From the NCBI GenBank assembly GCA_038064195.1, contig JBBTTO010000002.1, positions 333,356-397,355 of the forward strand: 64,000 bases of DNA, in the 5' to 3' direction. This DNA is from Patescibacteria group bacterium. Lineage in GTDB: Bacteria > Patescibacteriota > Microgenomatia > Levybacterales > UBA12049. Below are positions 1 through 60,451 of this stretch, one piece after another (positions within the stretch are counted from its first letter, which is position 1; every line of letters starts with the position of its first letter). The position numbers and the translations under genes are program-made. The notes under the pieces were generated by a model. That model was not told the DNA's origin. It ran no database searches and was given only the letters and a program-made list of their open reading frames with translations.

Positions 1-3000
1 GACTTACCCGTCTGCATGAAGCTTTTGAGTCTGAGTCCAAAAAGCTTGATGAGATTGCGGATACGTTGGCACGACTCTTAAAGAGTCTTCGAACGGGAAG
101 TGTTCTTTCAGAGGATGAGTACTACAAGCTCATGGAATATGAAATCCCTGTTTTCTACACCATCAAAACCGGTTCTGAGGCACTTAATGAGCTTATTATT
201 TCCTTAGATCTCTCACAACTGATTGTCGATCTGCGTAAAGAAGCGGAAAAAGCCAGCGGACAACGCTATCTTAAAATCATAAAGCGTCTCAGGCTCATTG
301 AGAATATGCGTAAGGCGACCGTTGATCCGGCAGCTATGATTCTGACAATCTTACCTGTCATCCCGCCTGATCTCCGTCCTATGGTCCAGCTTGCAGGAGG
401 CCGCTTCGCAACCTCAGATTTAAATGATTTGTATCGTCGTGTCATCAATCGTAACAACCGCTTAAAGCATTTAATGTCACTTGGCGCACCGGAGATTATC
501 CTGCGTAATGAAAAGCGCATGTTACAGGAATCAGTTGATGCACTTATTGACGCGTCACAGCGCGGCAGTCAGGCTATTGCTTCTCCGCTTCGTTCGTTAT
601 CAGACATGCTTCGTGGTAAGCAGGGACGTTTCCGTCAGAATTTACTCGGAAAGCGTGTCGATTATTCAGGACGTTCAGTCATCGTTGTTGGGCCTGAGTT
701 GAAGCTCACTCAGTGCGGACTGCCTAAGGAAATGGCACTTGAGATGTTTAAGCCGTTTGTCCTGCGTGAGGTTATCCTGCGGGGCCTTGCTACCAACATC
801 AAATCAGCTAAACGGTATATTGAAAAGCGACCGCCTGAAGTCTTTGATATCTTAGAGGAGATCACTAAGAATCATCCGGTGCTTCTTAACCGTGCTCCAA
901 CACTTCACAAATTAGGTATTCAGGCTTTCTATCCGGTACTTATTGAGGGGTCAGCTATTCAGCTCCATCCTTGTGTCTGTACAGGTTATAATGCCGACTT
1001 TGACGGAGACCAGATGGCGGTCCACATCCCTCTTTCACAAAAAGCTCAGGAAGAGGCTATCGCACTCATGCTGCCAAGTCACAACCTCTTAAAGCCGGCT
1101 GACGGATCTCCTATAACCCTTCCTAACAAGGAGATGGCACTTGGAGTCTACTTCTTAACATCAGTTGATGAGGCACTCATCCGTCCTACTGAAGAGCAAG
1201 TCTATTTTGAGAACGAAACAGCCGCAATCATGGCTTATGACATGGGGAAAATAAAGCTCAAGCAGCCTGTCCAGGTTCGTGTCACCAAGGACGGCAGTCA
1301 TCAGCTGACTGAGACTACAGTCGGACGTATTCGTTTTAATGAACTGCTGCCTAATACATTTGAGTATGTTAATACCTCAATTAATGCAGCCGGGATTAAG
1401 AAGTTAATTACCCAGGCAATGAAGTTGTGTACCCCTGAGGAAGTTACAGTCCTTATTGACAGTATTAAGTCGCTCGGCTTTTACGGAGCAACTATTTCAG
1501 GGCTTTCAGTCTCTGTTTTTGATACTGAGATGATTCCTGAGAAAAACGGCATGATCGGTGAAGCAGAGACGAAAGTGGCCGGAATTGATAGTGAGTACCA
1601 GCGTGGGCTTATCACACTTGAGGAGAAAAAGCGTCTCTCAAATGACGTCTGGCTTAAGACCACAGATGAAATTGCACGCAAGACATGGAATAGCTTTAAA
1701 TCCAATAATCCGATCAAAGTAACCATTGATTCAGGAGGATCACGTGCCGGAGTTGAGCAGATCAAACAACTTTCAGCTATCCGTGGACTTATCGTTGATC
1801 CGCTCGGTAAAATCGTTGAGCTTCCTGTCAAGTCCAACTTCCGTGAAGGTCTCTCAATCTTTGAATATGTCGCTTCAGCCCGCGGATCCCGTAAAGGGTT
1901 GACGGACTCAGCCTTGAAGACTGCCAATGCCGGATATCTGACCCGCCGACTTGTCGATGTCTCGCATGATGTCATCATCATGGAGAAAGATTGCGGTTCG
2001 ACAGAGGGTCTGACTATCAGTGTCACAGATCCTGAGCGTACTGCAGCTTTTGCGGATCGTCTGTACGGTCGTTATCTCTCAGCCAATGCAATGAGTAAGA
2101 CCCGTAAGGTGATCCTGAAAGCGGGCGAGGAGTTGACCGAGGACAATGTTAAGTTGCTCGTAGATAGTGAAGTCACTGAGGTTGAAGTCAGAACACCGCT
2201 TGGTTGTAAGTTAGCGTATGGCATTTGTCAGATGTGTTATGGCTGGGATTTCTCGACCAAGACGACAGTACAATTTGGTGTGCCTGTCGGTGTAGTCGCA
2301 GCCCAAAGTATCGGAGAACCGGGAACTCAGCTGACAATGCGTGTTCGCCATTTCGGAGGAGTTGTTATGAGTGACGTGACGCAGGGTCTGCCACGTGTTG
2401 AGGAACTCTTTGAGATGCGTACTCCGAAGAATTTGGCACCTATCTCAGGTCTTTCAGGAAAAGTTAAGATCGAGACGACAGAGGAAGGACATCGGGTCCA
2501 GATCCGCAACACTCACATCAAGCCTGTGGAAATTCAGGAATACTTCGTACCTTTGGCTGCCACACTCGCAGTTGAAGACGGACAGGATGTCACAGCAGGG
2601 ACAGCTTTAGCTCAAGGCTATTTGGATCCGAAAGAAGTGCTTAAGGTAGGCGGCATTATCCAGGCTCAGAAGTACTTGGTAACTGAAGTGCAAAAAGTAT
2701 ACGAATCTCAAGGTATCGGTATTAACGACAAGCATTTTGAGGTCATTTTGCGCAAGATGTCTGACAAGATCGTGGTTGAGACAGTCGGTGATACCTCACT
2801 TATCCCGGGAGACTTTGTCACTCGAGCAAGATTTGAAGAGATCAATGCTGAAATCCTTTCAGAAGGCGGCGTACCGGCTACCGGTCGACAAGTGATCCTG
2901 GGTATCACCAAAGCTGCCTTGTTCTCAGATTCATGGCTCTCAGCTGCATCATTCCAAGAGACCACCAAAGTCCTGACTGAAGCTGCTTTGGAAGGCCGTG

Positions 3001-30531: not shown

Positions 30532-31119
30532 ATGAGAGGCAGGTTAGAATATCCTTCACGTTGGGACGGAGTCGCTTTTCACGGCTCAAATATCAAATCA
30601 GGTCCAAATCAGGACGCAGAGCTATTTAATCGACAGCTGGAACGATTTCCTGATCTTCTGATCAGTGGCATGTTAGATGGTATCGATGCTGGCATGCATA
30701 AATTTGACAATATGCCTTATGATGTGACAGTTCTTGGTCCTCCTAAACTCATGACAGTAGGAACGCCAACAATTGGTCAAGTAGTACTAAAAGCCAAGTT
30801 GCTTTTGTGGGGTGAACATTCAGATTTCGGTATATCCAATTCTGATCCCTGGAAAGATAAAGAAACCATTACCTATGTGACAGTTTCAGGGAATGTCTGG
30901 AACCCGTGCAGATCTTTTATTGAAGCAAGTCATATTGGTGATGAATATGATGAGATGGATTCACTTTTCTGGCAGTCTTTATCAGATGAAGAGATGCAGC
31001 GGCGTATTGCTGCTCTATGGCAACGTAAAGAGATGATCCAGGAAGCAAGTCGGTTTAGCGAGAACAGAAAAAGTAATGATAGACAGGTCAACTTATATCG
31101 TAGATCTCTTACCGCGTAA
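30532..31119 (+). CDS. Hypothetical protein
   Basis: 195 aa with no recognisable motif and no Shine-Dalgarno. Confidence 0.45.
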   Translation: MRGRLEYPSRWDGVAFHGSNIKSGPNQDAELFNRQLERFPDLLISGMLDGIDAGMHKFDNMPYDVTVLGPPKLMTVGTPTIGQVVLKAKLLLWGEHSDFGISNSDPWKDKETITYVTVSGNVWNPCRSFIEASHIGDEYDEMDSLFWQSLSDEEMQRRIAALWQRKEMIQEASRFSENRKSNDRQVNLYRRSLTA

Positions 31120-31120
31120 G

Positions 31121-32302
31121 TTATCTCCTGACAAAAAGAATGGCGTTAGGGATATTACGTCCCGGGCCCAATTTATAGCCACCTGACCAGAGGGCGGTAG
31201 ATCCTCCTTCATCAAGATTCATTGCATTTTCCATACCTAACGTCTTCATGGTACGTGCCGACTCCCCCATGGTGGCGTTATAAACAAAGCCTATATAGAC
31301 GGTGCTCCCCCGCGCGGCGACGAAACCTCGAGGGCCTTTGCTGTTGAATTTGGGATCAGGATTGTCAGAATAAACGACATTTCCGCCTGAGACAAGAAGC
31401 GGGAAATTAGAGAGAACTGCATCAACGCCCGTGTCGCGTCCCCATTCTGACGCGTGTGCTACAAAACGTGCAGAACTTCCCTGAAAAATGACAGCCGGAT
31501 TGTTACTATAGACATTATTATCAGAGTTAAAATAATGCTTATTCTTATTCATCACCAGAAGGTCAAAGGAGTTGGTTTTTCCGGAGCAGCTCGGGTATTC
31601 GGCCGGACAAAAATACGTACCGTTGATGCCCGCGAAAGCGCCGTTACGAGCAACATAATCGCTCAAGGGGAGAACAGGGCAATTGTTGCTACAATCTCCA
31701 TCTGATGCGGTATCGACAATAACACGTGTCGAATTAAGATCAGCAGCGACAATTGCGACCGTAAAATCCCCGACATCGGTTGAGACTTTTTGTACACTAA
31801 AGCCTGATCCCGGGGGTGTATTGTTTGCCGGTGCATTGGTAGCAGCTGCAGGCAGAGATGATATTGCCAATGCGGCTTGGGCTTTGGACTGGTCGTCTTT
31901 GATTTGTTTGTTCAAAGCGACCAGTGTCGCATCAGATGAGGCATAGTTACGTTCGGAGAGGTAGGCGAGTGACTGAGTGAACAGCTTTTCATAAGCATCG
32001 GTTTTCTGTTTTTGCGCTCTCAGGTCCTGAATCGTTTCATACGTCTTAAGCGCAACTTTATAAGAAGATTCGATGGCCTTAATCTGTGTCTGAAGTGTCT
32101 CATTGCGCTTAAACTGATCCTGATTTTTGAGATCCTGATATTGCTTTTCAACACGAGCAAGTTGTTTTTGTGTCGCGGATAAACTTTTGTTTTGTGAGGT
32201 GAGTTTGACAACGGCGAGAATGATAAGAACAGCCGCAACGATAACAGGAACACTGAATAAGAAGGCCAGGTGTTTTTTGAGGATATGAAGCAGTTGGGAC
32301 AT
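31121..32302 (-). CDS. Phosphodiester glycosidase family protein (DUF2233/NAGPA-like), membrane-anchored
   Basis: N-terminal TM segment, a coiled-coil, and a C-terminal ...AMNLDEGGSTALW motif typical of DUF2233. Confidence 0.7.
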   Translation of the reverse strand: MSQLLHILKKHLAFLFSVPVIVAAVLIILAVVKLTSQNKSLSATQKQLARVEKQYQDLKNQDQFKRNETLQTQIKAIESSYKVALKTYETIQDLRAQKQKTDAYEKLFTQSLAYLSERNYASSDATLVALNKQIKDDQSKAQAALAISSLPAAATNAPANNTPPGSGFSVQKVSTDVGDFTVAIVAADLNSTRVIVDTASDGDCSNNCPVLPLSDYVARNGAFAGINGTYFCPAEYPSCSGKTNSFDLLVMNKNKHYFNSDNNVYSNNPAVIFQGSSARFVAHASEWGRDTGVDAVLSNFPLLVSGGNVVYSDNPDPKFNSKGPRGFVAARGSTVYIGFVYNATMGESARTMKTLGMENAMNLDEGGSTALWSGGYKLGPGRNIPNAILFVRR

Positions 32303-32350: not shown

Positions 32351-32379
32351 TTGATTTGAGGCTAATAAAGCCCTATAAT
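32351..32379 (+). promoter_or_regulatory. Promoter TTGATT-17-TATAAT upstream of the sigma factor gene (leader about 110 nt)
   Basis: TTGATT at 32351-32356 and TATAAT at 32374-32379. Confidence 0.65.
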
Positions 32380-32490
32380 ATCTTTCTTATGTCTGAGAAA
32401 TTGAGACCACGAGATTTTGATACCTCTTCAGAATTTTTTGATGGTTGAGTCAAAGAGGATCGTTCCCTCTCAGGTGATACTCCCGCGATC

Positions 32491-33867
32491 GTGTTGTATA
32501 ACGGAGTGGGAGAAGCAGACGTTGCTTCTCCGGATTTCCTTGCAGGAGTCGAAGAGCTACTAGAAGATATTAGAGAGCCTGATAATATGTCAGTGCTGTT
32601 GCAAGAAATTGAAGCAAGGGGTGATATTGTCGATGCGTTCCCCCGTGTCCCCTCAGAGATTTTGGATTCTGACTTGGATGATCCTGTTGTACTTTATTTT
32701 CGAGATGCAGGTACGAGAGATATTCTAACTCGCGAAGAAGAAGTGAGCCTTGCGCAAGCAATGGAGCGAGGGGACACGGCTGCAAGAGCGATATTGATCG
32801 AATCAAATTTACGTCTCGTTGCCTCCATAGCGAATCGATATGTTGGTCGAGGCCTTGATTTCCTAGATCTAATTCAGGAAGGTAATATCGGACTGATGCG
32901 TGCAATTGAGAAATTTGATTGGCGGCTGGGGTATAAAATATCTACCTATGCGACGTGGTGGATACGCCAATCTATGACGCGAGCGATTGCTGATAAAGGA
33001 CGCATCATACGATTACCTGTCTATATTATTGAATCTGGTCATAGTATACGAAGAACTGAGAACGATTTGAAGAGTGAGTTTGGTAGGGAGCCAACTGATG
33101 ATGAGGTTGGAGCTGCATCAGGATTTGGCAGAGAAAGAGTAGATGCTATCAAGTCACATACCCAAGGAATTGATTCTCTCAATCGTCCTTTAGATCAAGA
33201 TCCTGATCATGAGAGAGGAGATTTTCTGGCAGATCCGGACAATCTTGAAGAAGGTGTCTTAACCGGTGTGCAAAATCAGGAAATTTTAGACGGGCTTGCA
33301 GGGCTAACAGACAGAGAAAAATTGATCATCTCTATGAGGTTTGGTCTTAAGGGGAGTGATACCCATACGCTTGAAGAGACCGGATACGAGTTAGAAATAA
33401 CTCGTGAGAGGGTACGACAAATTGAAAAAAAAGCTCTTGCCAAGCTAAAAAGAAATAATCATATGCGATCTTTATATTATGGCGATTCGGAAGAGTCAGT
33501 CAGAAGGGCTACTGTGCCAGAACAAGTAGTAGTACCGTCTTCTCATGTGGACACAGTTGAATATGTTCAGTTTTCTCACATTGAAAAGGAGATTTTTAGG
33601 CTTTATGCCAGAGGATTGAGTCTCAAAACGATTGCAAAGATTGCGGGTATTACCAATCAAGATGCAAAAAACTATATTACCAGCATACGGCATAAGCTAA
33701 AAGCTTCCACGAGGACTGAGGCGATAAGTATCGGTACCAGGCTTGGATTACAGACAGATACTGATGGTGGTAGTGATGATCTAGGAATAGAGAATGGTAA
33801 TTCAGGGTTTATTCCTGAAGTTGGATCTCAAAGGGATCCTGATCTGTCTCAGCCTGATAGAGAGTAG
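32491..33867 (+). CDS. RpoD-like sigma-70 factor (regions 1.2-4.2) with an extra C-terminal LuxR/GerE-type HTH domain and an acidic tail
   Basis: Region 2 [16 protein letters not shown]...YATWWIRQ. Region 4.2 [28 protein letters not shown]. Then about 125 extra residues containing [50 protein letters not shown]. Confidence 0.85.
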
Positions 33868-34739
33868 GATTTAAACTTGTCGATGTTAGCTTTATCAGGG
33901 CCTTTTTTATCAAGTCCCGGGACTTCTAAAATAAATGGTTTGTTCTTCGTCAAAGAACTGTTTACTAACATCTTAAATTCATCTTCCGGAATTTGACCCA
34001 TGCCTAAATTTTCATGTCTATCTCTGAACGAGCCCAGCGGATCTTTACTGTCATTGATCTGAAATACTTCAAGTCTGTCCATGCCGACTTTTTGCTCAAA
34101 TTCGTCAAAATATGTCTTAAATTTGTCCTCAGTTGATAGATCACAGCCAGCGCCCCAGAGATGACAGGTGTCCAGACAGACTTTAATACGGGGATGATTT
34201 AATTGCCTCACAATAAATCCTAATTCCGAAAGTGACCAGTTGAGCTTTTTGTTGCCGGCATTTTCAATAATAAAATACGTTCCTTCAGGTGTGCTATCAA
34301 GCACAGCCTGAACATTGTTAAAGACAATGTCATATTGTTTAGCAGTCGGTTTTTCTGCCTGCTTGAAAGAACCCAGATGAATGATTGAACCGACAATGTT
34401 CATTCTCTTAGCCAGGTTTAACTCATCTATAAGGGTCTGGATGGAAGCCTTACCGATGCGGTCATTGTCGGCGAAGTTGACGAGATAGGAAGCATGGAAA
34501 TAGACAGGATCTATGGCATATTTCTTTCGTTCAGTCAAAAAAGTCTCAATTTGCTCATCACTTACAGGCTGGACGCCCCAGTTACGAGGGGAAGAGGAAA
34601 AAATCTGCAGGCAGTTGCCGCCGATCTCGTTAATTTTATGAAGTGCGTTATGATATCCGCCCGCAATTGATAAATGAGCGCCAATTTTCAGGTTAGTGGT
34701 CTTTGTGATAACGCTCTTCGATTTTGTTGAGCTTGTCAT
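33849..34739 (-). CDS. nfo: Endonuclease IV (AP endonuclease family 2)
   Basis: TIM-barrel Nfo motifs [10 protein letters not shown]...HASYLVN. The 3' end overlaps the sigma gene convergently by 19 nt. Confidence 0.9.
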
Positions 34740-35667: not shown

Positions 35668-35701
35668 GGTAGCGGGTAGCGGGTAGCGGGTAGCGGGTAG
35701 C
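35668..35701 (+). repeat. Heptanucleotide microsatellite (GGTAGCG)x~5
   Basis: cggtagcgggtagcgggtagcgggtagcgggtagc, lying between the alkA stop and the dehydrogenase start. Confidence 0.85.
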
Positions 35702-39151: not shown

Positions 39152-40420
39152 ATGAACAAAGTAAAAAAACTCCTTAAAGTACTCGGCCCCGGATTCATAA
39201 CCGGTGCATCAGATGATGACCCCTCAGGCATCGGGACCTACGCACAGACGGGGGCTATGTTTGGCTATAATCAGCTCTGGACGGCTCTTTTTTCGCTGCC
39301 TTTTATGACTGTCGTTCAGGAAATGTGCGGCAGGATCGGGATGGTAACCGGGACAGGGTTGGCCGGAGTACTGAAAATCCATTACACCCGCAAGGTTCTT
39401 TATATAGCCGTCGGGATATTATTTATTGCCAATACGATCAATATCGGCGCAGATTTAGGGGCAATGGCCGCATCAGCCCAACTGATCCTGGGTATCCCTT
39501 TTTGGGTATGGCTGCTTATTATTACCGCGACTACGATCTCGCTTGAGGTCTTTGTCTCCTATCCTGCCTATGCAAGACTGCTTAAATACCTGACTCTCTC
39601 GCTTTTTGCCTACATTGTCACAGTCTTTGTCATCAAGCAGGATTGGATGCATATTCTGTCGGGAACAATCATTCCGAGTTTTACTTTTAATAAAGATTAC
39701 CTGCTAAATATCGTGGCGCTTTTGGGGACAACAATTTCCCCTTATCTTTTTTTCTGGCAGGCAGATGAGGAGGTCGAAGAGGAGATAGAGCATCACCAAC
39801 TCCGTGCGATGGGAAAGGGTGTGCCGAGAATTACCAAGAGAGATATTCGGGAGATGCGACTGGATACGATTGTCGGTATGCTTTTTTCAAATATTGTGAT
39901 GTTTTTTATCATCGTGACGACTGCTTCAACACTGGGAGCACACGGGATAAAAGATATCCAAACAGCCGATCAGGCAGCTTCAGCCCTAAGGCCTTTTGCC
40001 GGGGATTTTGCTTTCCTGCTTTTTGCACTGGGGATCATCGGTACGGGGCTTTTGGCCGTTCCGATCCTGGCAGGATCTGCCTCGTACGCGATTTCTGAGG
40101 CTTTTAATATGAAAGCAGGATTGAGTAAACGATTTACTCAAGCACATGGGTTTTATGCGATAATTGCGCTTGCGACCCTACTCGGATTTTTGATCAACTT
40201 TACCTCAATTAAACCTTTTACTCTTCTCTATTACACGGCTATCCTCAACGGAGTTGCCGCTCCTCCCCTCCTGGTCTTGATTATGCTGACGGCTAATAAC
40301 TCAAAAATCATGGGGAAATATACCAATAACCGGACAGTCAATATGTTAGGGTGGGCTATAACAAGTGTTATGTCTTTGGCAGCCCTCGCTCTGGTTGCAA
40401 GCCTTATCTTCTTCAAGTAG
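39152..40420 (+). CDS. NRAMP-family divalent metal transporter (MntH-like)
   Basis: LGPGFITGASDDDPSGIGTYAQTGA signature and a polytopic membrane topology. Confidence 0.85.
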   Translation: MNKVKKLLKVLGPGFITGASDDDPSGIGTYAQTGAMFGYNQLWTALFSLPFMTVVQEMCGRIGMVTGTGLAGVLKIHYTRKVLYIAVGILFIANTINIGADLGAMAASAQLILGIPFWVWLLIITATTISLEVFVSYPAYARLLKYLTLSLFAYIVTVFVIKQDWMHILSGTIIPSFTFNKDYLLNIVALLGTTISPYLFFWQADEEVEEEIEHHQLRAMGKGVPRITKRDIREMRLDTIVGMLFSNIVMFFIIVTTASTLGAHGIKDIQTADQAASALRPFAGDFAFLLFALGIIGTGLLAVPILAGSASYAISEAFNMKAGLSKRFTQAHGFYAIIALATLLGFLINFTSIKPFTLLYYTAILNGVAAPPLLVLIMLTANNSKIMGKYTNNRTVNMLGWAITSVMSLAALALVASLIFFK

Positions 40421-40431
40421 AATGCCTCTGT

Positions 40432-41439
40432 ATGGATGATATAAAAGATAGATCACAGAAATTGCTCGAAAAAATAGATTTGGGACAAAAAAAGACGCGA
40501 ATCCTTGAGCTGCAAAAGGAAAGTGAAGATCCTGTTTTTTGGCAGGACCATAAGGCAGCAGGCGTGAAGATGAAAGAGCTCTCAACTCTGCAAAAAGAGA
40601 TTGAGGAGCTCGAGTTACTGCAGCTCTGGATAGATGAAGGGGAGATGGAGGAAGCGGGTAAATTACTTAAGAAATTAGAGACCCTCCTTTATTTTACTTC
40701 CCCATATGATGAGGGTAATGCGATTGTGGCAATTCATTCAGGTCAGGGAGGAACTGAGGCGATGGACTGGGCCGAGATGCTTTACCGGATGTATACGAGG
40801 TTTTTTGAGAAAAAAGGCTGGGGGTATGAAATTTTGGATGAAACTCCGGGTGAGGAAGCGGGGATTAAAAGCATTTCTCTGGCTGTTTCCGGCCCTTATG
40901 TGTATGGCCTTTTAAAACACGAAGCAGGGGTGCATCGTTTGGTCCGTCAGTCGCCTTTTAATGCTGATAAGCTGCGTCAGACATCCTTTGCCATGGTTGA
41001 AGTGCTGCCTCAGATAGATCAGGCAGGGGTGATTGAGATAAAAGACGATGAGATCGAATTTGATGCTTTCCGGGCAGGAGGACACGGGGGGCAAAACGTC
41101 AACAAAGTCTCGAGTGCAGTCAGGATCAAGCACATTCCAACCGGTATTGTCGTCACTGCTTCAGTTGAGAGACAGCAAAATCAAAATCGAGAGTTTGCAA
41201 TGAAGCTCCTTAAAGCTAAATTATGGCAACGGCAGGAAGAAGAGCGTCATAAAGAAGAACAGCGTATGAAAGGGGGGTATGTCACTCCCGGTTGGGGCAA
41301 TCAGATCCGCTCTTATGTCCTCCATCCCTATAAAATGGTGAAAGATTTGCGCACTGATGTCGAGACAGGCAATACAGACGCCGTCTTAGACGGTGATTTG
41401 GATCAATTTATCGAAGCGGAGCTAAGACAGTTGTCATGA
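40432..41439 (+). CDS. prfB: Peptide chain release factor 2 (no programmed frameshift)
   Basis: SPF tripeptide (RQSPFNADK), GGQ motif and the RF2 N-terminus in a single frame. No CUU UGA C frameshift site was found. Confidence 0.9.
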   Translation: MDDIKDRSQKLLEKIDLGQKKTRILELQKESEDPVFWQDHKAAGVKMKELSTLQKEIEELELLQLWIDEGEMEEAGKLLKKLETLLYFTSPYDEGNAIVAIHSGQGGTEAMDWAEMLYRMYTRFFEKKGWGYEILDETPGEEAGIKSISLAVSGPYVYGLLKHEAGVHRLVRQSPFNADKLRQTSFAMVEVLPQIDQAGVIEIKDDEIEFDAFRAGGHGGQNVNKVSSAVRIKHIPTGIVVTASVERQQNQNREFAMKLLKAKLWQRQEEERHKEEQRMKGGYVTPGWGNQIRSYVLHPYKMVKDLRTDVETGNTDAVLDGDLDQFIEAELRQLS

Positions 41440-41440
41440 T

Positions 41441-41484
41441 GGGGCAAAAGGGAGGAAGGAGAGAAAAGAGACAAAGGAGGACTG
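41441..41484 (+). repeat. Polypurine tract (GGGGCAAAAGGGAGGAAGGAGAGAAAAGAGACAAAGGAGG) 5' of the four-helix-bundle gene
   Basis: Roughly complementary to the polypyrimidine tract at 41854-41905. Confidence 0.4.
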
Positions 41485-41853
41485 ATGGAGAAGTCGGGAA
41501 AAGGATATCACAAGCTTATTGTTTGGCAGAGAGCTAGGGAGTTGGTCAAAATAGTATACGAGCATACAGATGCTTTCCCGAAGGCTGAAGAGTTTGGTTT
41601 GAAAGGACAAATTCGTCGTGCAAGTGTTTCGGTGGTCCTCAATATAGTAGAAGGCTATAGGAGATCTTCCAGAAAAGATTATATCCATTTTTTAACCATC
41701 GCCAATGGGTCGCTTTCTGAAACAGAAGCAGCTATGGAGCTTTCTGTCGACTTAAAGTATCTTACCGAAGCTAATTACGAGATACTTGAGAAAAAACGGG
41801 GTGAAGTTGCCTATTTATTGTATCAATTAATCAAAAGTTTAAAGGCTAAATAA
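41485..41853 (+). CDS. Four-helix-bundle protein (TIGR02436 family, the '23S rRNA intervening-sequence protein' family)
   Basis: YHKLIVWQRARELVKIVYEHTDAFPKAEEFGLKGQIRRASVSVVLNIVEG is the family signature. Confidence 0.8.
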   Translation: MEKSGKGYHKLIVWQRARELVKIVYEHTDAFPKAEEFGLKGQIRRASVSVVLNIVEGYRRSSRKDYIHFLTIANGSLSETEAAMELSVDLKYLTEANYEILEKKRGEVAYLLYQLIKSLKAK

Positions 41854-41905
41854 ACTCCCTTTGTTACCTTTGTCCCCTTTGCCCCTTTCTTCCCCTCTCT
41901 CGTGG
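41854..41905 (+). repeat. Polypyrimidine tract (CTCCCTTTGTTACCTTTGTCCCCTTTGCCCCTTTCTTCCCCTCTCTC) 3' of the four-helix-bundle gene
   Basis: Contains CCCCTTTGCCCC, the reverse complement of upstream GGGGCAAAGGGG-like sequence, and CTTTCTTCCCCTCTCTC matching GGAGGAAGGAGAGAAAAG. Confidence 0.4.
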
Positions 41906-41987
41906 GGTTGTCAAATGATCACAAATGTGGTTAACTAGATACTGTCTTGGAGCAAGTTCCGAAGGCGCGGGGAAGGTGAGATAAGCG

Positions 41988-42437
41988 ATGGAAGAAAAAA
42001 AAGAAGAATCATCCTCCTTGATGCACGATCTAAAGGAATCATCAACCGGAGAAAATCGTATGAAATTTATCGGAATTTTTATTATTGTCGTACTTCTGGG
42101 TGTAGGTACCGGGTATGGGTTAACAAAGGTGACGGGCTCCGGTCCAACTCAAGGAAGTGTCCCGGGTAGCTCAGCTCCTCAAGGGGCAACTTATGGTACG
42201 TCCAATACTAAGGATTACCCTGATGTGGCCGAGGGAGTACTTCGTAAAGGCGGTATAGAAGACGAAGGAGCTTTCCATTTGGAGCGTCCGGGGGGGGAGA
42301 GCCAGAATGTCTATATGACCTCAAGCAACGTCGATCTCGCGAAATTGGTCGGTAAAAAAATAAAGGTTTGGGGACAGACTCAATCTGCACAGCATGCCGG
42401 ATGGCTCATGGACGTTGGAAAAGTTGAGGTGCTATGA
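41988..42437 (+). CDS. Hypothetical membrane-anchored protein (first gene of the ftsEX operon)
   Basis: TM segment near residue 25. Its stop overlaps the ftsE start (ATGA). Confidence 0.45.
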   Translation: MEEKKEESSSLMHDLKESSTGENRMKFIGIFIIVVLLGVGTGYGLTKVTGSGPTQGSVPGSSAPQGATYGTSNTKDYPDVAEGVLRKGGIEDEGAFHLERPGGESQNVYMTSSNVDLAKLVGKKIKVWGQTQSAQHAGWLMDVGKVEVL

Positions 42438-43270
42438 TCCGACTACTAGAAGTAACAAAGACATACGGGACAGGCACATCTGCTCTGTCTGATATCTCCC
42501 TTTCAATTGACAAAGGGGAGTTTGTTTTTATAGTGGGACCTTCAGGCTCAGGTAAGACGACGCTTCTTCGCCTCTTAATTCGTGATATGACTCCGACAAG
42601 AGGTACTATCACTCTCAACAACGTTGATATCGGAAAGCTCTCAAACAAAAAAGTTCCTCAGCTTCGTAAGCAAATAGGAGTTGTTTTTCAGGATCTTAAA
42701 ATGCTCATGGACAGAACAATTTATGAAAATATTCTGCTTCCCTTGGAGATGGCAGGAATGGATCATAAAGAGGCTGAACAGAAAGTTCATAAGATATTGA
42801 CTCAAGTCGGGATAGAGGAGCATATGGAAAAATTCCCTATTCAACTTTCTGGCGGAGAGCTGCAGCGTGCAGCTATCGCGCGTGCGCTTGTGTTCTCACC
42901 TGAGATCCTCCTTGCTGACGAGCCGACCGGGAATTTAGATAATACGACATCATGGGAGATTGTAAAATTATTGCAGGATATTAATAAATTGGGAACAACA
43001 GTTATCATGGCCACACACAATTTAGAAGTGGTCAACAGTCTGGACAAAAGAGTCGTTGAGCTTGAAAAAGGCAAGATGACACGTGATACTAAGAAAGGTC
43101 CTTCGACAAGCTCAGGACAAGATGTAAAAGAGACTAAACATGTGAAGAAACCTGAAGAGAAGGAAGACAAAAAAGATCTGGAAAAAAAACCGGAAGTTGA
43201 GGAAAAAGATTCTTCGATAAATCTGCCTGCCGGCAGGCAGGACTCAGAACAAGGCAAACATAAACAATGA
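42434..43270 (+). CDS. ftsE: Cell division ATP-binding protein FtsE with a Lys/Glu-rich C-terminal tail
   Basis: Walker A, the LSGGE signature and Walker B. About 60 extra charged C-terminal residues. Confidence 0.9.
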   Translation: MIRLLEVTKTYGTGTSALSDISLSIDKGEFVFIVGPSGSGKTTLLRLLIRDMTPTRGTITLNNVDIGKLSNKKVPQLRKQIGVVFQDLKMLMDRTIYENILLPLEMAGMDHKEAEQKVHKILTQVGIEEHMEKFPIQLSGGELQRAAIARALVFSPEILLADEPTGNLDNTTSWEIVKLLQDINKLGTTVIMATHNLEVVNSLDKRVVELEKGKMTRDTKKGPSTSSGQDVKETKHVKKPEEKEDKKDLEKKPEVEEKDSSINLPAGRQDSEQGKHKQ

Positions 43271-44133
43271 AAACAACTAGTACAGCCTGGAAACACATTC
43301 GTCGCTCGCCGTATCAGGCATTGGCGGCTATCTTGATCATGATGCTGACCTTTCTTGTCGTCTCAATGTTCACGATGGTGATCGTCAGCTCCAGTCAAAT
43401 TATCTCTTATTTTGAAGCATCTCCTAAGGTAACCGCTTTTTTTAAGGAAGATACACAGCAGCCCACAATCGATGCCTTAGCTGACTCACTGAAAGCCACG
43501 GGTAAAGTCTCAAGTATAAAATTCGTCTCAAAAGAGGAAGCATTCAGGCGCTATAGCAACTGGAATAAAGATAATCCGGTCCTTTTGGATCTGGTCAATG
43601 CCGATGTCCTGCCTCCCTCACTTGAGATATCAACCTATAAAATTGAGGATCTGGATTCGATTGCGAAAGTCCTTAAAGATTCGTCCTATGTCTCAGACGT
43701 CGTATTCCTCAAAGACGTCGTCTCAACGCTTATCTCTTGGACTGATGCGATGCGTAAGATCGGTCTCGTACTCGTGATTATCCTTGTTATCGTCTCAATC
43801 TTTGTCATGACAACAATCATCGGCTTTAAGATCTCACAAAAGCGTGAAGAGATTGAGATTATGCGGCTCCTTAGTGCGACCAACTGGTATATCAGATGGC
43901 CATTTTTACTCGAAGGGATGTTTTATGGATTTTTAGGCGCGATGCTCGGCTGGCTGCTTACCTTCGGCCTCACTCTCTATGCGCGGCCATTCCTGCTCTC
44001 ATTTGTACGGGAAATCCCTCTCATGACCCTTTCTCCTTATTTCCTCCTTGCTTTACTCGGTCTGGAGATCGGATTTGCACTAATGCTTGGCGCGATCGCC
44101 AGCTTTTTGGCAGTTTTGCGTTATTTGAAGTAA
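43267..44133 (+). CDS. ftsX: Cell division permease FtsX
   Basis: 4-TM FtsX topology, translationally coupled to ftsE. Confidence 0.85.
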   Translation: MKTTSTAWKHIRRSPYQALAAILIMMLTFLVVSMFTMVIVSSSQIISYFEASPKVTAFFKEDTQQPTIDALADSLKATGKVSSIKFVSKEEAFRRYSNWNKDNPVLLDLVNADVLPPSLEISTYKIEDLDSIAKVLKDSSYVSDVVFLKDVVSTLISWTDAMRKIGLVLVIILVIVSIFVMTTIIGFKISQKREEIEIMRLLSATNWYIRWPFLLEGMFYGFLGAMLGWLLTFGLTLYARPFLLSFVREIPLMTLSPYFLLALLGLEIGFALMLGAIASFLAVLRYLK

Positions 44134-44143
44134 AATCATCCCT

Positions 44144-45418
44144 ATGAATAATGTCCTTCGCCGCTTATGGCTGATTAGTCTTTTTTTGGCCGTTATTTTT
44201 CTTGCTGTTCCTAAGATGCCTATCCTTGCCGAGCCTACTACCCCTACCCCGACCCCTACAGGAAGTGTAACACCAACTCCTGATAACTCAGGACAGGTCA
44301 ATGATTTGAATAATAAAATCAAAGAACTAGAAAGTAAGGTATCTGATCTTCAATCTCAGGAGAAGTCTCTCTCATCACAAATTTCAGTGATGGATAATCA
44401 GATTAAGCTGACACAGTATCGGATTGATTATACTAAGCAACAGATCACTCAGCTGAATGATGATATTAATACGGCATCAACAAAAATCAGCCATCTTGAT
44501 AGCTCCCTCACCTCAATTACCAAGACACTCCTTAACAGAATCTCCGCGACATATCAGCTGGGTAATGTTGAGCCTTTACAACTTCTACTCTCGTCGCAAA
44601 GTTTTACGGATTTTTTTGACCGTACTAACTACATAAAAATCGTTCAGGCACATGATAAAAAACTCATTTATAACACGGTCCAAGCCAAAAATGATTACGC
44701 AAATCAAAAACAAATCTTTGAGGATAAAAAACAGCAAGTCCTGGCTTTGCAAACACAGCTGGAGAACTATACTGCCCAACTCGATCAGGAGAAAATCAGT
44801 AAACAAAAGCTTCTCAATGAGACGCAGGGAAGTGAAGCAAATTATCAACGACTCCTGGCCCAGGCACGAGCACAGCTGGCGGGCTTTAGTCGCTTTACCC
44901 AGAGTCAGGGTGGCGCATCAATCTTAAGTGGTCAGACTGTTTGTGATGACTGGGGCTGTTACTACAACCAGCGTGATAGTCAGTGGGGAGGCAATGCTTT
45001 GAATGGCACTCAGTATACGCTAGCTAGTGATGGCTGTTTAGTTACTGCAATGGCAATGGTTTATACCCATTTTGGTCATCGCTCAGTTACTCCTCAGACA
45101 ATTAATAGTAGCTCAAATAACTTTGCATCTTATTATCCAGCCTATCTCAAATTCGATATCTCAGCCGATGGTGCTAATTACTCACGAGTCAGTATTAGTA
45201 GAGCGGAGATGGATAACCAGCTTGCCGCGGGTAATCCGGTTGTTGTTGGAATCAGTTATGATGGCGGACCAATATCAGATCATTTTGTAGTTATCGTGAG
45301 TGGATCAAATGGAGATTACTTGATGAATGATCCGTTTACTCCCAACGGACATCGAATTTCCTTTACCTCGAAATACTCAATCGGGAGTATTAACGATATC
45401 TATAAGGTAAATATTTAA
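44144..45418 (+). CDS. PcsB/EnvC-like FtsEX-associated peptidoglycan hydrolase: coiled-coil plus a C-terminal papain-like (C39/CHAP-type) cysteine peptidase domain
   Basis: Signal peptide and TPTPTPT linker, about 200 aa of coiled-coil, and a C-terminal Cys (DGCLVTAMAMV) / His (DHFVVIV) dyad. Confidence 0.65.
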   Translation: MNNVLRRLWLISLFLAVIFLAVPKMPILAEPTTPTPTPTGSVTPTPDNSGQVNDLNNKIKELESKVSDLQSQEKSLSSQISVMDNQIKLTQYRIDYTKQQITQLNDDINTASTKISHLDSSLTSITKTLLNRISATYQLGNVEPLQLLLSSQSFTDFFDRTNYIKIVQAHDKKLIYNTVQAKNDYANQKQIFEDKKQQVLALQTQLENYTAQLDQEKISKQKLLNETQGSEANYQRLLAQARAQLAGFSRFTQSQGGASILSGQTVCDDWGCYYNQRDSQWGGNALNGTQYTLASDGCLVTAMAMVYTHFGHRSVTPQTINSSSNNFASYYPAYLKFDISADGANYSRVSISRAEMDNQLAAGNPVVVGISYDGGPISDHFVVIVSGSNGDYLMNDPFTPNGHRISFTSKYSIGSINDIYKVNI

Positions 45419-59458: not shown

Positions 59459-60079
59459 TTAGACGTACAGGTCTGTGAGGATGTCGGTAACGCCTGGCTT
59501 GGGGCGTGCAGGAGCGTATTCACGACCATAGAGGATAAGCAGGTGGGGGAATTCAATCCACCACTCCTTGGGAACTATTTTCATTAAATCCTCTTCAATT
59601 TTTTCAGGTTTGTCCGAGTCACTCAGCCCTAAGCGGCCGACTGCTCTGATGACATGAGTATCAACGACAATGCCCTCAGACGTGTGAAAGGCATCGCCCA
59701 AAACAACATTGGCTGTTTTCCTGGCGACTCCCGGGAGATTATCTAATTCCTGCATAGTATTGGGAACTTCACCATTATGTTTGTCAACCATTTGTTGCGA
59801 AGCTGCCCTAATATTTTTTGCCTTGTTCCCGTGGAAGGTGACTTTTTTGATCAGAGCGTCGATATCTTCAACTGAGGCTTTGGCCATAGATTTGGCGTCG
59901 GGATAATGTTTGAAAAGCTCAGGGGTCACGGTGTTGACCAGCTTATCAGTACATTGTGCCGAAAGAATAGTGGCGATAAGCAGTTCAAAAGGATTTGAAA
60001 ATTCAAGAGCGGTACGAGGGTGAGGGTAGATTTGTTTGAGGCGATGGTAAATCTCTTTAACTTTCTCTTCTTTAGTCAT
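59459..60079 (-). CDS. nth: Endonuclease III-like HhH-GPD glycosylase (C-terminal 4Fe-4S Cys cluster apparently absent)
   Basis: HhH motif LPGVARKTANVVL and the catalytic Lys/Asp. No C-x6-C-x2-C-x5-C at the C-terminus. Confidence 0.8.
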   Translation of the reverse strand: MTKEEKVKEIYHRLKQIYPHPRTALEFSNPFELLIATILSAQCTDKLVNTVTPELFKHYPDAKSMAKASVEDIDALIKKVTFHGNKAKNIRAASQQMVDKHNGEVPNTMQELDNLPGVARKTANVVLGDAFHTSEGIVVDTHVIRAVGRLGLSDSDKPEKIEEDLMKIVPKEWWIEFPHLLILYGREYAPARPKPGVTDILTDLYV

Positions 60080-60100: not shown

Positions 60101-60451
60101 TTAAGCTGGGCTGAACTTATCAGGGAAAAGCCTTGCAAGTGTTCCATCATCTAGGAGTCTACAATACGTTAACCAAAGATCACCATATAAAGTTACTTCC
60201 TTGCCTTCATTAATAAGTCTGATTACTTCTCCTTCATAAACATACTTTAAATACCATTCTTCGCTCTTAGAGATATGTCTTTGTGCATCCTCATAACTTT
60301 CAACTGCAGCTCGAGCACCTGAGTATGGAACATAAACATATATCTGACCATTTTCATCTTGTTGAATTTCGGCGATAACATCTCCGTTCTTATCTCTAAC
60401 TTCCTCAAGTAGTTCATATTTATCAAAGGATATAAAAGACTCACATGTCAT
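60101..60451 (-). CDS. Hypothetical protein
   Basis: 116 aa with no recognisable motif. Confidence 0.4.
   Translation of the reverse strand: MTCESFISFDKYELLEEVRDKNGDVIAEIQQDENGQIYVYVPYSGARAAVESYEDAQRHISKSEEWYLKYVYEGEVIRLINEGKEVTLYGDLWLTYCRLLDDGTLARLFPDKFSPA

Follow-up and report, generated by a model that had tools for sequence, protein, structure and literature searches.

The DNA analyzed here is a stretch of 64,000 nucleotides (nt) from a Patescibacteria group bacterium (NCBI GenBank assembly GCA_038064195.1, contig JBBTTO010000002.1, positions 333,356 to 397,355 of the forward strand), called the window below; all positions are counted within it. It contains a gene in which a complete sigma-70-type sigma factor is continued, in one reading frame, by a helix-turn-helix (HTH) domain of the LuxR/GerE type. 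The parts of this protein are well known, and their combination appears to be undescribed: searches of a literature collection lacking most subscription-journal papers turned up no account of a sigma-70/LuxR-HTH fusion. The locus comprises the following elements.

32351 to 32379, plus strand: sigma-70-type promoter, TTGATT (32351-56), a 17-nt spacer and TATAAT (32374-79); promoter scan, 10 of 12 matches
32389 to 32448, plus strand: ATG (32389), the ancestral and probably leaderless start, then 19 codons and an in-frame TGA (32446-48); translation and comparison of assemblies
32491 to 33867, plus strand: open reading frame (ORF) of the sigma-GerE fusion; ORF listing, NCBI MEK7605248.1 (458 amino acids (aa), Patescibacteria group bacterium)
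33849 to 34739, minus strand: nfo (endonuclease IV, AP_endonuc_2), convergent, its 3' end overlapping the sigma gene by 19 nt; ORF listing

Gene and integrity of the reading frame

The fusion ORF begins with GTG (32491) and ends with a stop codon at 33865-67; an alternative start used by gene callers, GTG 32506, gives a product of 453 aa (P0001). The frame runs uninterrupted from the sigma domains into GerE, and apart from the upstream TGA no other lesion is found in the 458 open codons. An earlier reading of the letters alone, referred to below as the sequence-only reading, had claimed such a continuous frame with no stop between the domains, as well as a convergent 19-nt overlap with nfo, and both claims were borne out by the ORF coordinates. 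The start that it had given, 32351, was wrong: this position is out of frame with the fusion ORF and is the first letter of the -35 hexamer TTGATT. The overlap of the sigma gene with nfo is kept in relatives, with 19 nt in the sister species (L004) and 14 nt in a distant orthologue (L011).

In principle, a sigma gene and a separate luxR-type gene could have been joined artificially, by misassembly or a frameshift. One assembly, ERZ1286166 (L005), does call two genes here, P0122 (257 aa) and P0123 (134 aa), broken at a run of eight adenines (A8). Compared with the window over 5 kb, however, L005 has one mismatch and 18 single-base indels, all 18 of them in homopolymers, and its neighbouring genes are all fragmented; the split is therefore a long-read error. 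Eleven contigs, obtained from several samples, encode an identical protein, and the frame is continuous in all of them; at least ten are short-read contigs other than the split L005. One of the eleven, Hain_H52_01um_R3_1 (ENA ERZ1292617), is a Hainich groundwater contig of 1.076 Mb that carries the gene at roughly 908.7-910.1 kb. Three diverged positional orthologues also have one continuous frame. The junction, which the sequence-only reading had singled out for checking, thus proved sound: the fusion is a genuine gene and not a frameshift or assembly artefact, and the contrary explanation is extremely improbable. Programmed frameshifting or phase variation at A8 was considered separately and rejected, since the tract is conserved in no relative.

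Domain architecture and predicted structure

Domains were searched for with Pfam, and all five domains of the protein scored above their gathering scores (23.5 for GerE, PF00196). The elements of the coding sequence, all on the plus strand and with residues in 458-aa numbering, are as follows.

32680 to 32778: Sigma70_r1_2 (PF00140), residues 64-96; 33.8 bits
32794 to 33003: sigma region 2 (PF04542), residues 102-171; 80.2 bits
33043 to 33243: sigma region 3 (PF04539), residues 185-251; 42.8 bits
33295 to 33450: sigma region 4 (PF04545), residues 269-320, with the -35 recognition motif TRERVRQIE intact; 71.5 bits
33425 to 33432: A8 homopolymer within region 4.2, where the long-read assembly drops one A (L005, about 2950-3000)
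33481 to 33570: natural sigma C-terminal tail (MRSLYYGD) and disordered linker, residues 331-360; tail alignment, predicted local distance difference test (pLDDT) below 50 at residues 331-355
33571 to 33741: LuxR/GerE-type four-helix HTH, residues 361-417, net charge about +6; Pfam, PDB matches, AlphaFold2
33742 to 33864: disordered acidic tail, residues 418-458, net charge -7; charge count, AlphaFold2

The order of sigma regions 1.2, 2, 3 and 4 followed by GerE agrees with the sequence-only reading, and the HTH sequence that it quoted is found exactly in the ORF. GerE had been expected at residues of about 350-420 and was found at 361-413 (34.4 bits, E 1.7e-8). The extension after region 4, put at about 125 residues with an acidic tail, amounts to 125-133 residues, and the tail (residues 415-458) has a net charge of -7. 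Regions 2 and 4, present in order, place the protein in the sigma-70 family; the profile match above the gathering score, together with the four-helix fold, places its extension among the LuxR/GerE HTH domains. With net charges of -14 in the N-terminal segment, -3 in the linker, about +6 in GerE and -7 in the tail, a basic HTH is flanked by acidic segments.

The sigma part retains the residues used for promoter recognition. Reading region 2 against the RpoD consensus shows that the residues for -10 recognition and DNA melting have been kept, and the TRERVRQIE motif is invariant in alignments of relatives. The equivalents of Y425, Y430, W433, W434, Q437 and T440 (-10) and of R584, E585, R588 and Q589 (-35), the contact positions in E. 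coli sigma-70 numbering, are all conserved as read from the sequence. The tail MRSLYYGD is intact before the linker and aligns with the C-terminus of canonical RpoD (cf. LKDYLE, LRSFLDD). Given these contact residues and the intact tail, the core should therefore read ordinary sigma-70 promoters.

The GerE part has sequence matches in the PDB to NarL/FixJ-type output domains (LiaR, VraR, DesR, NarL and GerE). The receiver domain of NarL/FixJ proteins is lacking, as no Response_reg match was obtained in the fusion protein, and it is the sigma domains that precede GerE. AlphaFold2, run with an alignment of 40 sequences, predicts four GerE helices (363-373, 378-385, 389-403 and 408-417, pLDDT 95-97), confident sigma domains and disorder in the linker (331-355) and the tail (424-449). 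The structure prediction proposed by the sequence-only reading accordingly gives a four-helix GerE domain on a disordered tether. For the full-length protein the predicted template modelling score (pTM) is 0.40, and therefore no fixed arrangement between the domains is predicted. A Foldseek search with the full model matched only ordinary sigma chains in RNA polymerase complexes, including SigA and sigma-S.

The sequence-only reading had also described the protein as a tandem of two region-4-like modules. As an analogy of folds this description holds. As a duplication it does not, and internal duplication of region 4 was rejected, since BLASTP of region 4 against GerE of the same protein detected no similarity.

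Relatives and history of the fusion

The exhaustive search was carried out with region 4 and the extension as the query against 1.84 billion representatives, and the best 150 matches were inspected. The architecture r1.2-r2-r3-r4-GerE was found in seven clusters among these 150 matches, so that its description as uncommon by the sequence-only reading was appropriate. The sole close relative in the 15-billion-protein collection is P0002 of the sister species (L004), which is 85% identical and has the same domains and the same neighbourhood. The further fused proteins, P0128, P0135, P0145, P0159, P0191 and P0261, are 32-39% identical to the query.

Related genomes keep the fusion at the same locus, where the sequence-only reading had suggested looking for it. 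In L011 the gene of P0135 (40% identical) stands in the order LytR_C, NAGPA (minus), sigma (plus), nfo (minus), MazG (minus), HhH-GPD, 2-hydroxyacid dehydrogenase and transketolase, which is the order of the window, and the gene of P0159 (L012) is located between LytR_C and HhH-GPD. Together with the window protein and P0002, four positional orthologues thus retain the fusion.

The number of HTH copies varies. P0135, P0159, P0128 and P0191 have two GerE copies each, and P0128 has a third HTH. The C-terminal DLSQPDRE of the window protein (33841-33864) aligns with the first-helix motif of the second GerE domain (LSKRDRE in P0128). Because the C-terminus lines up with the start of a second GerE, the ancestral form most likely had two tandem HTHs, the second of which was lost in the window/P0002 lineage; P0002, whose N-terminus is intact, also lacks it.

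P0261 comes from a metagenome-assembled genome (MAG) of Thermomicrobiales with 67% GC, and for this reason its fusion looks independent in origin. The locus of P0128 (L010) shares with the window the order Nramp, peptide-chain release factor, FtsE, FtsX and PcsB-like peptidase (window 39152-45418), and its fused sigma gene sits between the Nramp and release-factor genes. With the fused sigma gene at a different site in L010, the gene must have moved or been duplicated within the clade.

A profile search built on all the fusions recovered P0001, P0002 and P0128 as the only fused proteins. When the extension was scanned against GTDB species genomes, only unrelated LuxR genes of Bryobacterales and Acidimicrobiales were matched, and the scan of JGI metagenomes yielded no match; close relatives are therefore very sparsely sampled. 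The IMG/VR scan returned 80 RpoD-like loci, none of which matched past query residue ~358, and thus gave no sign of phage origin.

Start of the gene and possible decay of the window copy

ATG 32389 follows 9 nt after the end of the -10 hexamer, and the arrangement TTGATY-N17-TATAAT, 9 nt and ATG is conserved in the window, in L004 and in L011. This geometry suggests that the mRNA of the sigma-GerE gene is leaderless. ATG 32389 is the ancestral start of this probably leaderless frame, and P0135 starts at its equivalent. Leaderless mRNAs also seem to be common in the window genome, as suggested by a strong -10-like hexamer lying 5-11 nt 5' of the start in 11 of 57 window genes vs 1.9 expected by chance, with a Shine-Dalgarno-like motif in only nine of the 57, although the start codons in this count are crude longest-ORF calls. 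Examples of genes with such a TATAAT-like hexamer are those at 31121-32302 (minus), 44144, 18242, 59459-60079 and 60101-60451.

In each of the three independent assemblies that were compared, the leaderless frame has TGA as its codon 20, whereas L004 has GGA and reads through. Between TGA and GTG 32491 the substitutions that separate the window from L004 are mostly in third positions, as in coding sequence. An alternative code with TGA as Gly was rejected, since 12 of 55 long ORFs, nfo among them, terminate in TGA, which is therefore a normal stop in the window genome. In the window species, the segment 32389-32448 acts as a short upstream ORF or amounts to an N-terminal truncation. The protein is probably made by re-initiation at GTG 32491 or 32506, or else made poorly, and expression in this species may be reduced. 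A 10-bp hairpin, GGAGAAGCAG-ACG-TTGCTTCTCC, occupies 32509-32531, beginning 3 nt past GTG 32506, and is followed by a T-rich stretch; it may be due to chance, as shuffled sequence also yields one terminator-like site.

The TGA, present in every assembly, raises the possibility that the family is functional while the window copy is decaying, as a recent or partial pseudogene that has lost its start and second HTH and whose extension is drifting. Internal restarts may be inefficient in a genome with common leaderless-type starts and rare Shine-Dalgarno motifs. The 458 codons are, however, still open, and the N-terminal 60 residues belong to no sigma region, all sigma regions being 3' of the TGA. 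The second GerE copy has shrunk to a vestige, but its loss is common to P0002 and is hence older than the TGA and tolerated. Between the window and L004 the ratio of non-synonymous to synonymous substitution rates (dN/dS) is about 1.7 in the extension (4.3 synonymous, 23.7 non-synonymous differences), a value not below 1, whereas that of the core is 0.42. The sigma tail and linker (33481-33570) are the most variable part in this comparison. The Pfam score of the window GerE (34 bits) is below that of relatives, yet its replacements relative to P0002 are mostly conservative K/R swaps. Decay of the window copy is, on this evidence, improbable.

Position within the sigma-70 family

The sequence-only reading had labelled the protein a housekeeping sigma factor, which would make it the sole or primary sigma factor of a reduced genome with an HTH appended. 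Several features agree with such a role. The best family matches of the protein are RpoD models, its rpoD box and its -10 and -35 contact residues are intact, its gene has a promoter of the sigma-70 type, no canonical rpoD or second sigma gene was found in the 64-kb window, and a relative, P0191, is named 'primary sigma factor' by JGI.

The scores do not fit this assignment, however. The protein falls far below every RpoD equivalog cutoff (298.5 vs 555 for NF004208, 290 vs 572 for NF006666 and 264 vs 354 for TIGR02393), and it stays under the RpoS equivalog cutoffs as well. Region 1.1 (PF03979) has no match in the window protein even at E up to 1 and is present in no fused member found, whereas most canonical RpoDs in the match lists carry it.

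The rate of change also differs from that of a primary sigma factor. The window and L011 share 78% identity in nfo, 82% in MazG, 75% in HhH-GPD and 75% in the dehydrogenase, but only 40% in the sigma factor. Within the conserved core, identity among canonical RpoDs of different phyla is 56-92%, but between a fused sigma and any protein beyond its own species pair it is 32-52%; the exception is P0261, the core of which is 55-65% identical to canonical RpoDs. In addition, members of the family adjoin a canonical rpoD. In L013 (2275-4802) and in L014 (915-3562)/L015, from a sister clade, dnaG is followed by a canonical rpoD with region 1.1 (a weak match in the L013 and L014 genes) and then by the fused sigma. 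Between L013 and L014 rpoD is 84% identical overall and 97% in the core, and the adjacent fused sigmas are 44% identical, which is an extreme difference in rate for neighbouring paralogues. An essential gene would also be unlikely to tolerate a nonsense codon after its native start, such as the one fixed in this species.

A primary role is thus quite improbable, and the housekeeping label is not supported by these comparisons. The protein has regions 1.2 to 4.2 with RpoD-like -10/-35 contact residues, as found in group 2. Taken together with the lack of region 1.1, the RpoD scores below cutoff and the fast evolution, it is therefore most likely a fast-evolving, group-2-like alternative sigma factor. 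For annotation, the results are a warning against the label 'primary sigma factor' for these fused proteins. The fast evolution beside a slow canonical rpoD suggests that fused sigmas control rapidly changing functions.

Proposed mode of action

As a rule, a sigma factor and a LuxR-type activator are two distinct proteins, which come together at the -35 region of the promoter. Free activators of the LuxR/GerE/NarL type usually bind at or next to the -35 element and touch sigma region 4 or the C-terminal domain of the alpha subunit. In artificial-recruitment experiments, promoters are activated when a DNA-binding module whose site they contain is tethered to RNA polymerase.

Against this background, the fusion may be an RpoD-like non-primary sigma factor of the group 2 type, whose tethered HTH adds DNA recognition to ordinary -10/-35 reading; the chances that this account is correct are put at about even. 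The polypeptide consists of a complete sigma factor (regions 1.2 to 4.2 and the natural C-terminal tail), a flexible linker of ~25-30 residues and the LuxR/GerE four-helix HTH. The sigma core would bind core RNA polymerase and read a TATAAT-like -10 and a TTGACA-like -35 element, while the tethered HTH would bind an extra DNA element adjoining or upstream of -35. In this way the holoenzyme could recruit itself to a subset of promoters without a separate activator. We infer the DNA binding of the HTH, its binding site and the genes controlled; the net charge of GerE (about +6) and the tandem copies of the orthologues are indirect hints of DNA binding.

A number of observations weigh against this account. 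Inspection by eye of 19 predicted window promoters revealed no convincing shared element upstream of -35, and no candidate motif was seen upstream of the promoter of the gene itself. With dN/dS of about 1.7, the window/L004 pair shows no purifying selection on the extension. The GerE domains of the orthologues are only ~25% identical, and some of them have zero net charge. LuxR-type HTHs normally act as dimers, whereas the window lineage keeps a single copy. The TGA following the leaderless ATG may leave the gene poorly expressed in the window species. Finally, a canonical rpoD was not detected in the 64 kb.

The same extension could instead regulate the protein without reading DNA. GerE and the acidic tail would fold back on sigma, as a stand-in for the acidic region 1.1 or a built-in anti-sigma, or would bind a partner protein, and would thereby gate holoenzyme formation or promoter binding. 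The absence of region 1.1 and the acidic, disordered character of the N-terminal segment, linker and tail agree with this possibility, and fast change of the extension would suit co-evolving protein contacts. Regulatory C-terminal extensions are known from extracytoplasmic function (ECF) sigma factors, as described in a review (PMC8999054). However, AlphaFold2 provides no confident docking of the domains, with the pTM of 0.40 and the disordered linker noted above, and GerE is a complete, canonical and basic HTH that passes the Pfam threshold. The one to three tandem HTH copies of relatives would also suit DNA-reading arrays better than an inhibitor. Regulation through protein contacts is accordingly considered unlikely, though it keeps appreciable weight.

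If DNA reading by the tethered HTH is accepted, a broader proposal could be made. Sigma-LuxR fusions would represent a distinct 'self-activating' class of sigma factors, which use a three-part promoter (-10, -35 and a LuxR-type box, read by one or two HTHs). Sigma factor and activator would have merged into a single fast-evolving polypeptide in Patescibacteria, whose genomes are small and poor in regulators, and this would have happened independently in at least one lineage of Chloroflexota. This generalization is tentative, and the balance is somewhat against it.

A natural covalent fusion of sigma factor and activator would mean that promoter selectivity can be built into the sigma subunit, and it would offer a simple system for the study of activation by recruitment. 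For the ultra-small genomes of the Candidate Phyla Radiation (CPR), which have few transcription factors, it would give a hint of the way in which transcription is partitioned.

Other features of the window

At 30532-31119 the LytR_C and NAGPA genes flank a 195-aa ORF without a Pfam match. Its identity to the L004 counterpart, 76%, is below that of its neighbours; in L011 tblastn gave no match to it, and its place is taken by a 669-aa alpha-amylase-like gene. The spacer between the HhH-GPD and 2-hydroxyacid dehydrogenase genes contains a (GGGTAGC)n tandem repeat of ~3.5 copies (35677-35701), and a '23S rRNA intervening-sequence protein' (bAvd-like four-helix bundle) is encoded at 41485-41853. 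No rRNA, tRNA or Rfam family was detected across the 64 kb, and the prfB frameshift motif (CTTTGAC), looked for near 40.4 kb, was not found there.

Comparison with known systems

MzaA, a sigma-70 family protein of the MZA anti-phage system, shares a generic RpoD-like core with the fusion (272 bits with the NCBIfam model, 172 bits with the PADLOC model). Membership was rejected, since the score of 272 bits is to be compared with a cutoff of 800 and the match covers only profile positions 430-659 of 683, the C-terminal sigma part. No Mza partner genes are found nearby, the neighbours being housekeeping enzymes.

ECF (group 4) sigma factors with C-terminal extensions (ECF41, ECF42 and ECF56, with SnoaL-like or TPR domains) resemble the fusion in having an extra C-terminal domain in the same polypeptide. 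These extensions modulate sigma activity (PMC8999054, PMC7730460). ECF sigmas have regions 2 and 4 only and their extensions are not HTHs, whereas the fusion is RpoD-like; its regions 1.2 and 3 score above threshold, and membership in the ECF group was rejected for this reason.

With the effector domains of LuxR/GerE/NarL regulators (GerE, the C-terminal domain of NarL, LiaR/VraR and DesR), the HTH of the fusion shares the four-helix fold, Pfam PF00196 and sequence matches in the PDB. Unlike these regulators, the fusion has neither a receiver nor a ligand-binding domain, and its HTH is carried covalently on sigma. It further differs from the free dimeric members in that the window protein has one HTH copy; in the orthologues, two tandem copies on one polypeptide may take the place of the dimer.

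Class II LuxR-type activators and the phage T4 protein MotA (sigma appropriation) act through the C-terminus of sigma-70. Their likeness to the fusion is one of functional analogy only: a DNA-binding module at the C-terminal end of region 4 adds a promoter element. Both are separate proteins that act in trans, whereas the link in the fusion is covalent, and the fusion has no sequence relationship to MotA.

Group 2 sigma-70 factors (RpoS, cyanobacterial SigB-E and Streptomyces HrdA-D) have, like the fusion, regions 1.2, 2, 3 and 4 in order. Also alike are the conserved -10/-35 contact residues, the lack of region 1.1 and, for the relatives of the window protein, the coexistence of the gene with a canonical RpoD; the structural matches of the fusion model include SigA and sigma-S chains. 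Unlike typical members of this group, the fused sigmas evolve far faster and the window protein lies below the RpoS and RpoD equivalog cutoffs. The fused family is further set apart from group 2 by the one to three LuxR/GerE HTHs that follow the natural C-terminus of sigma.

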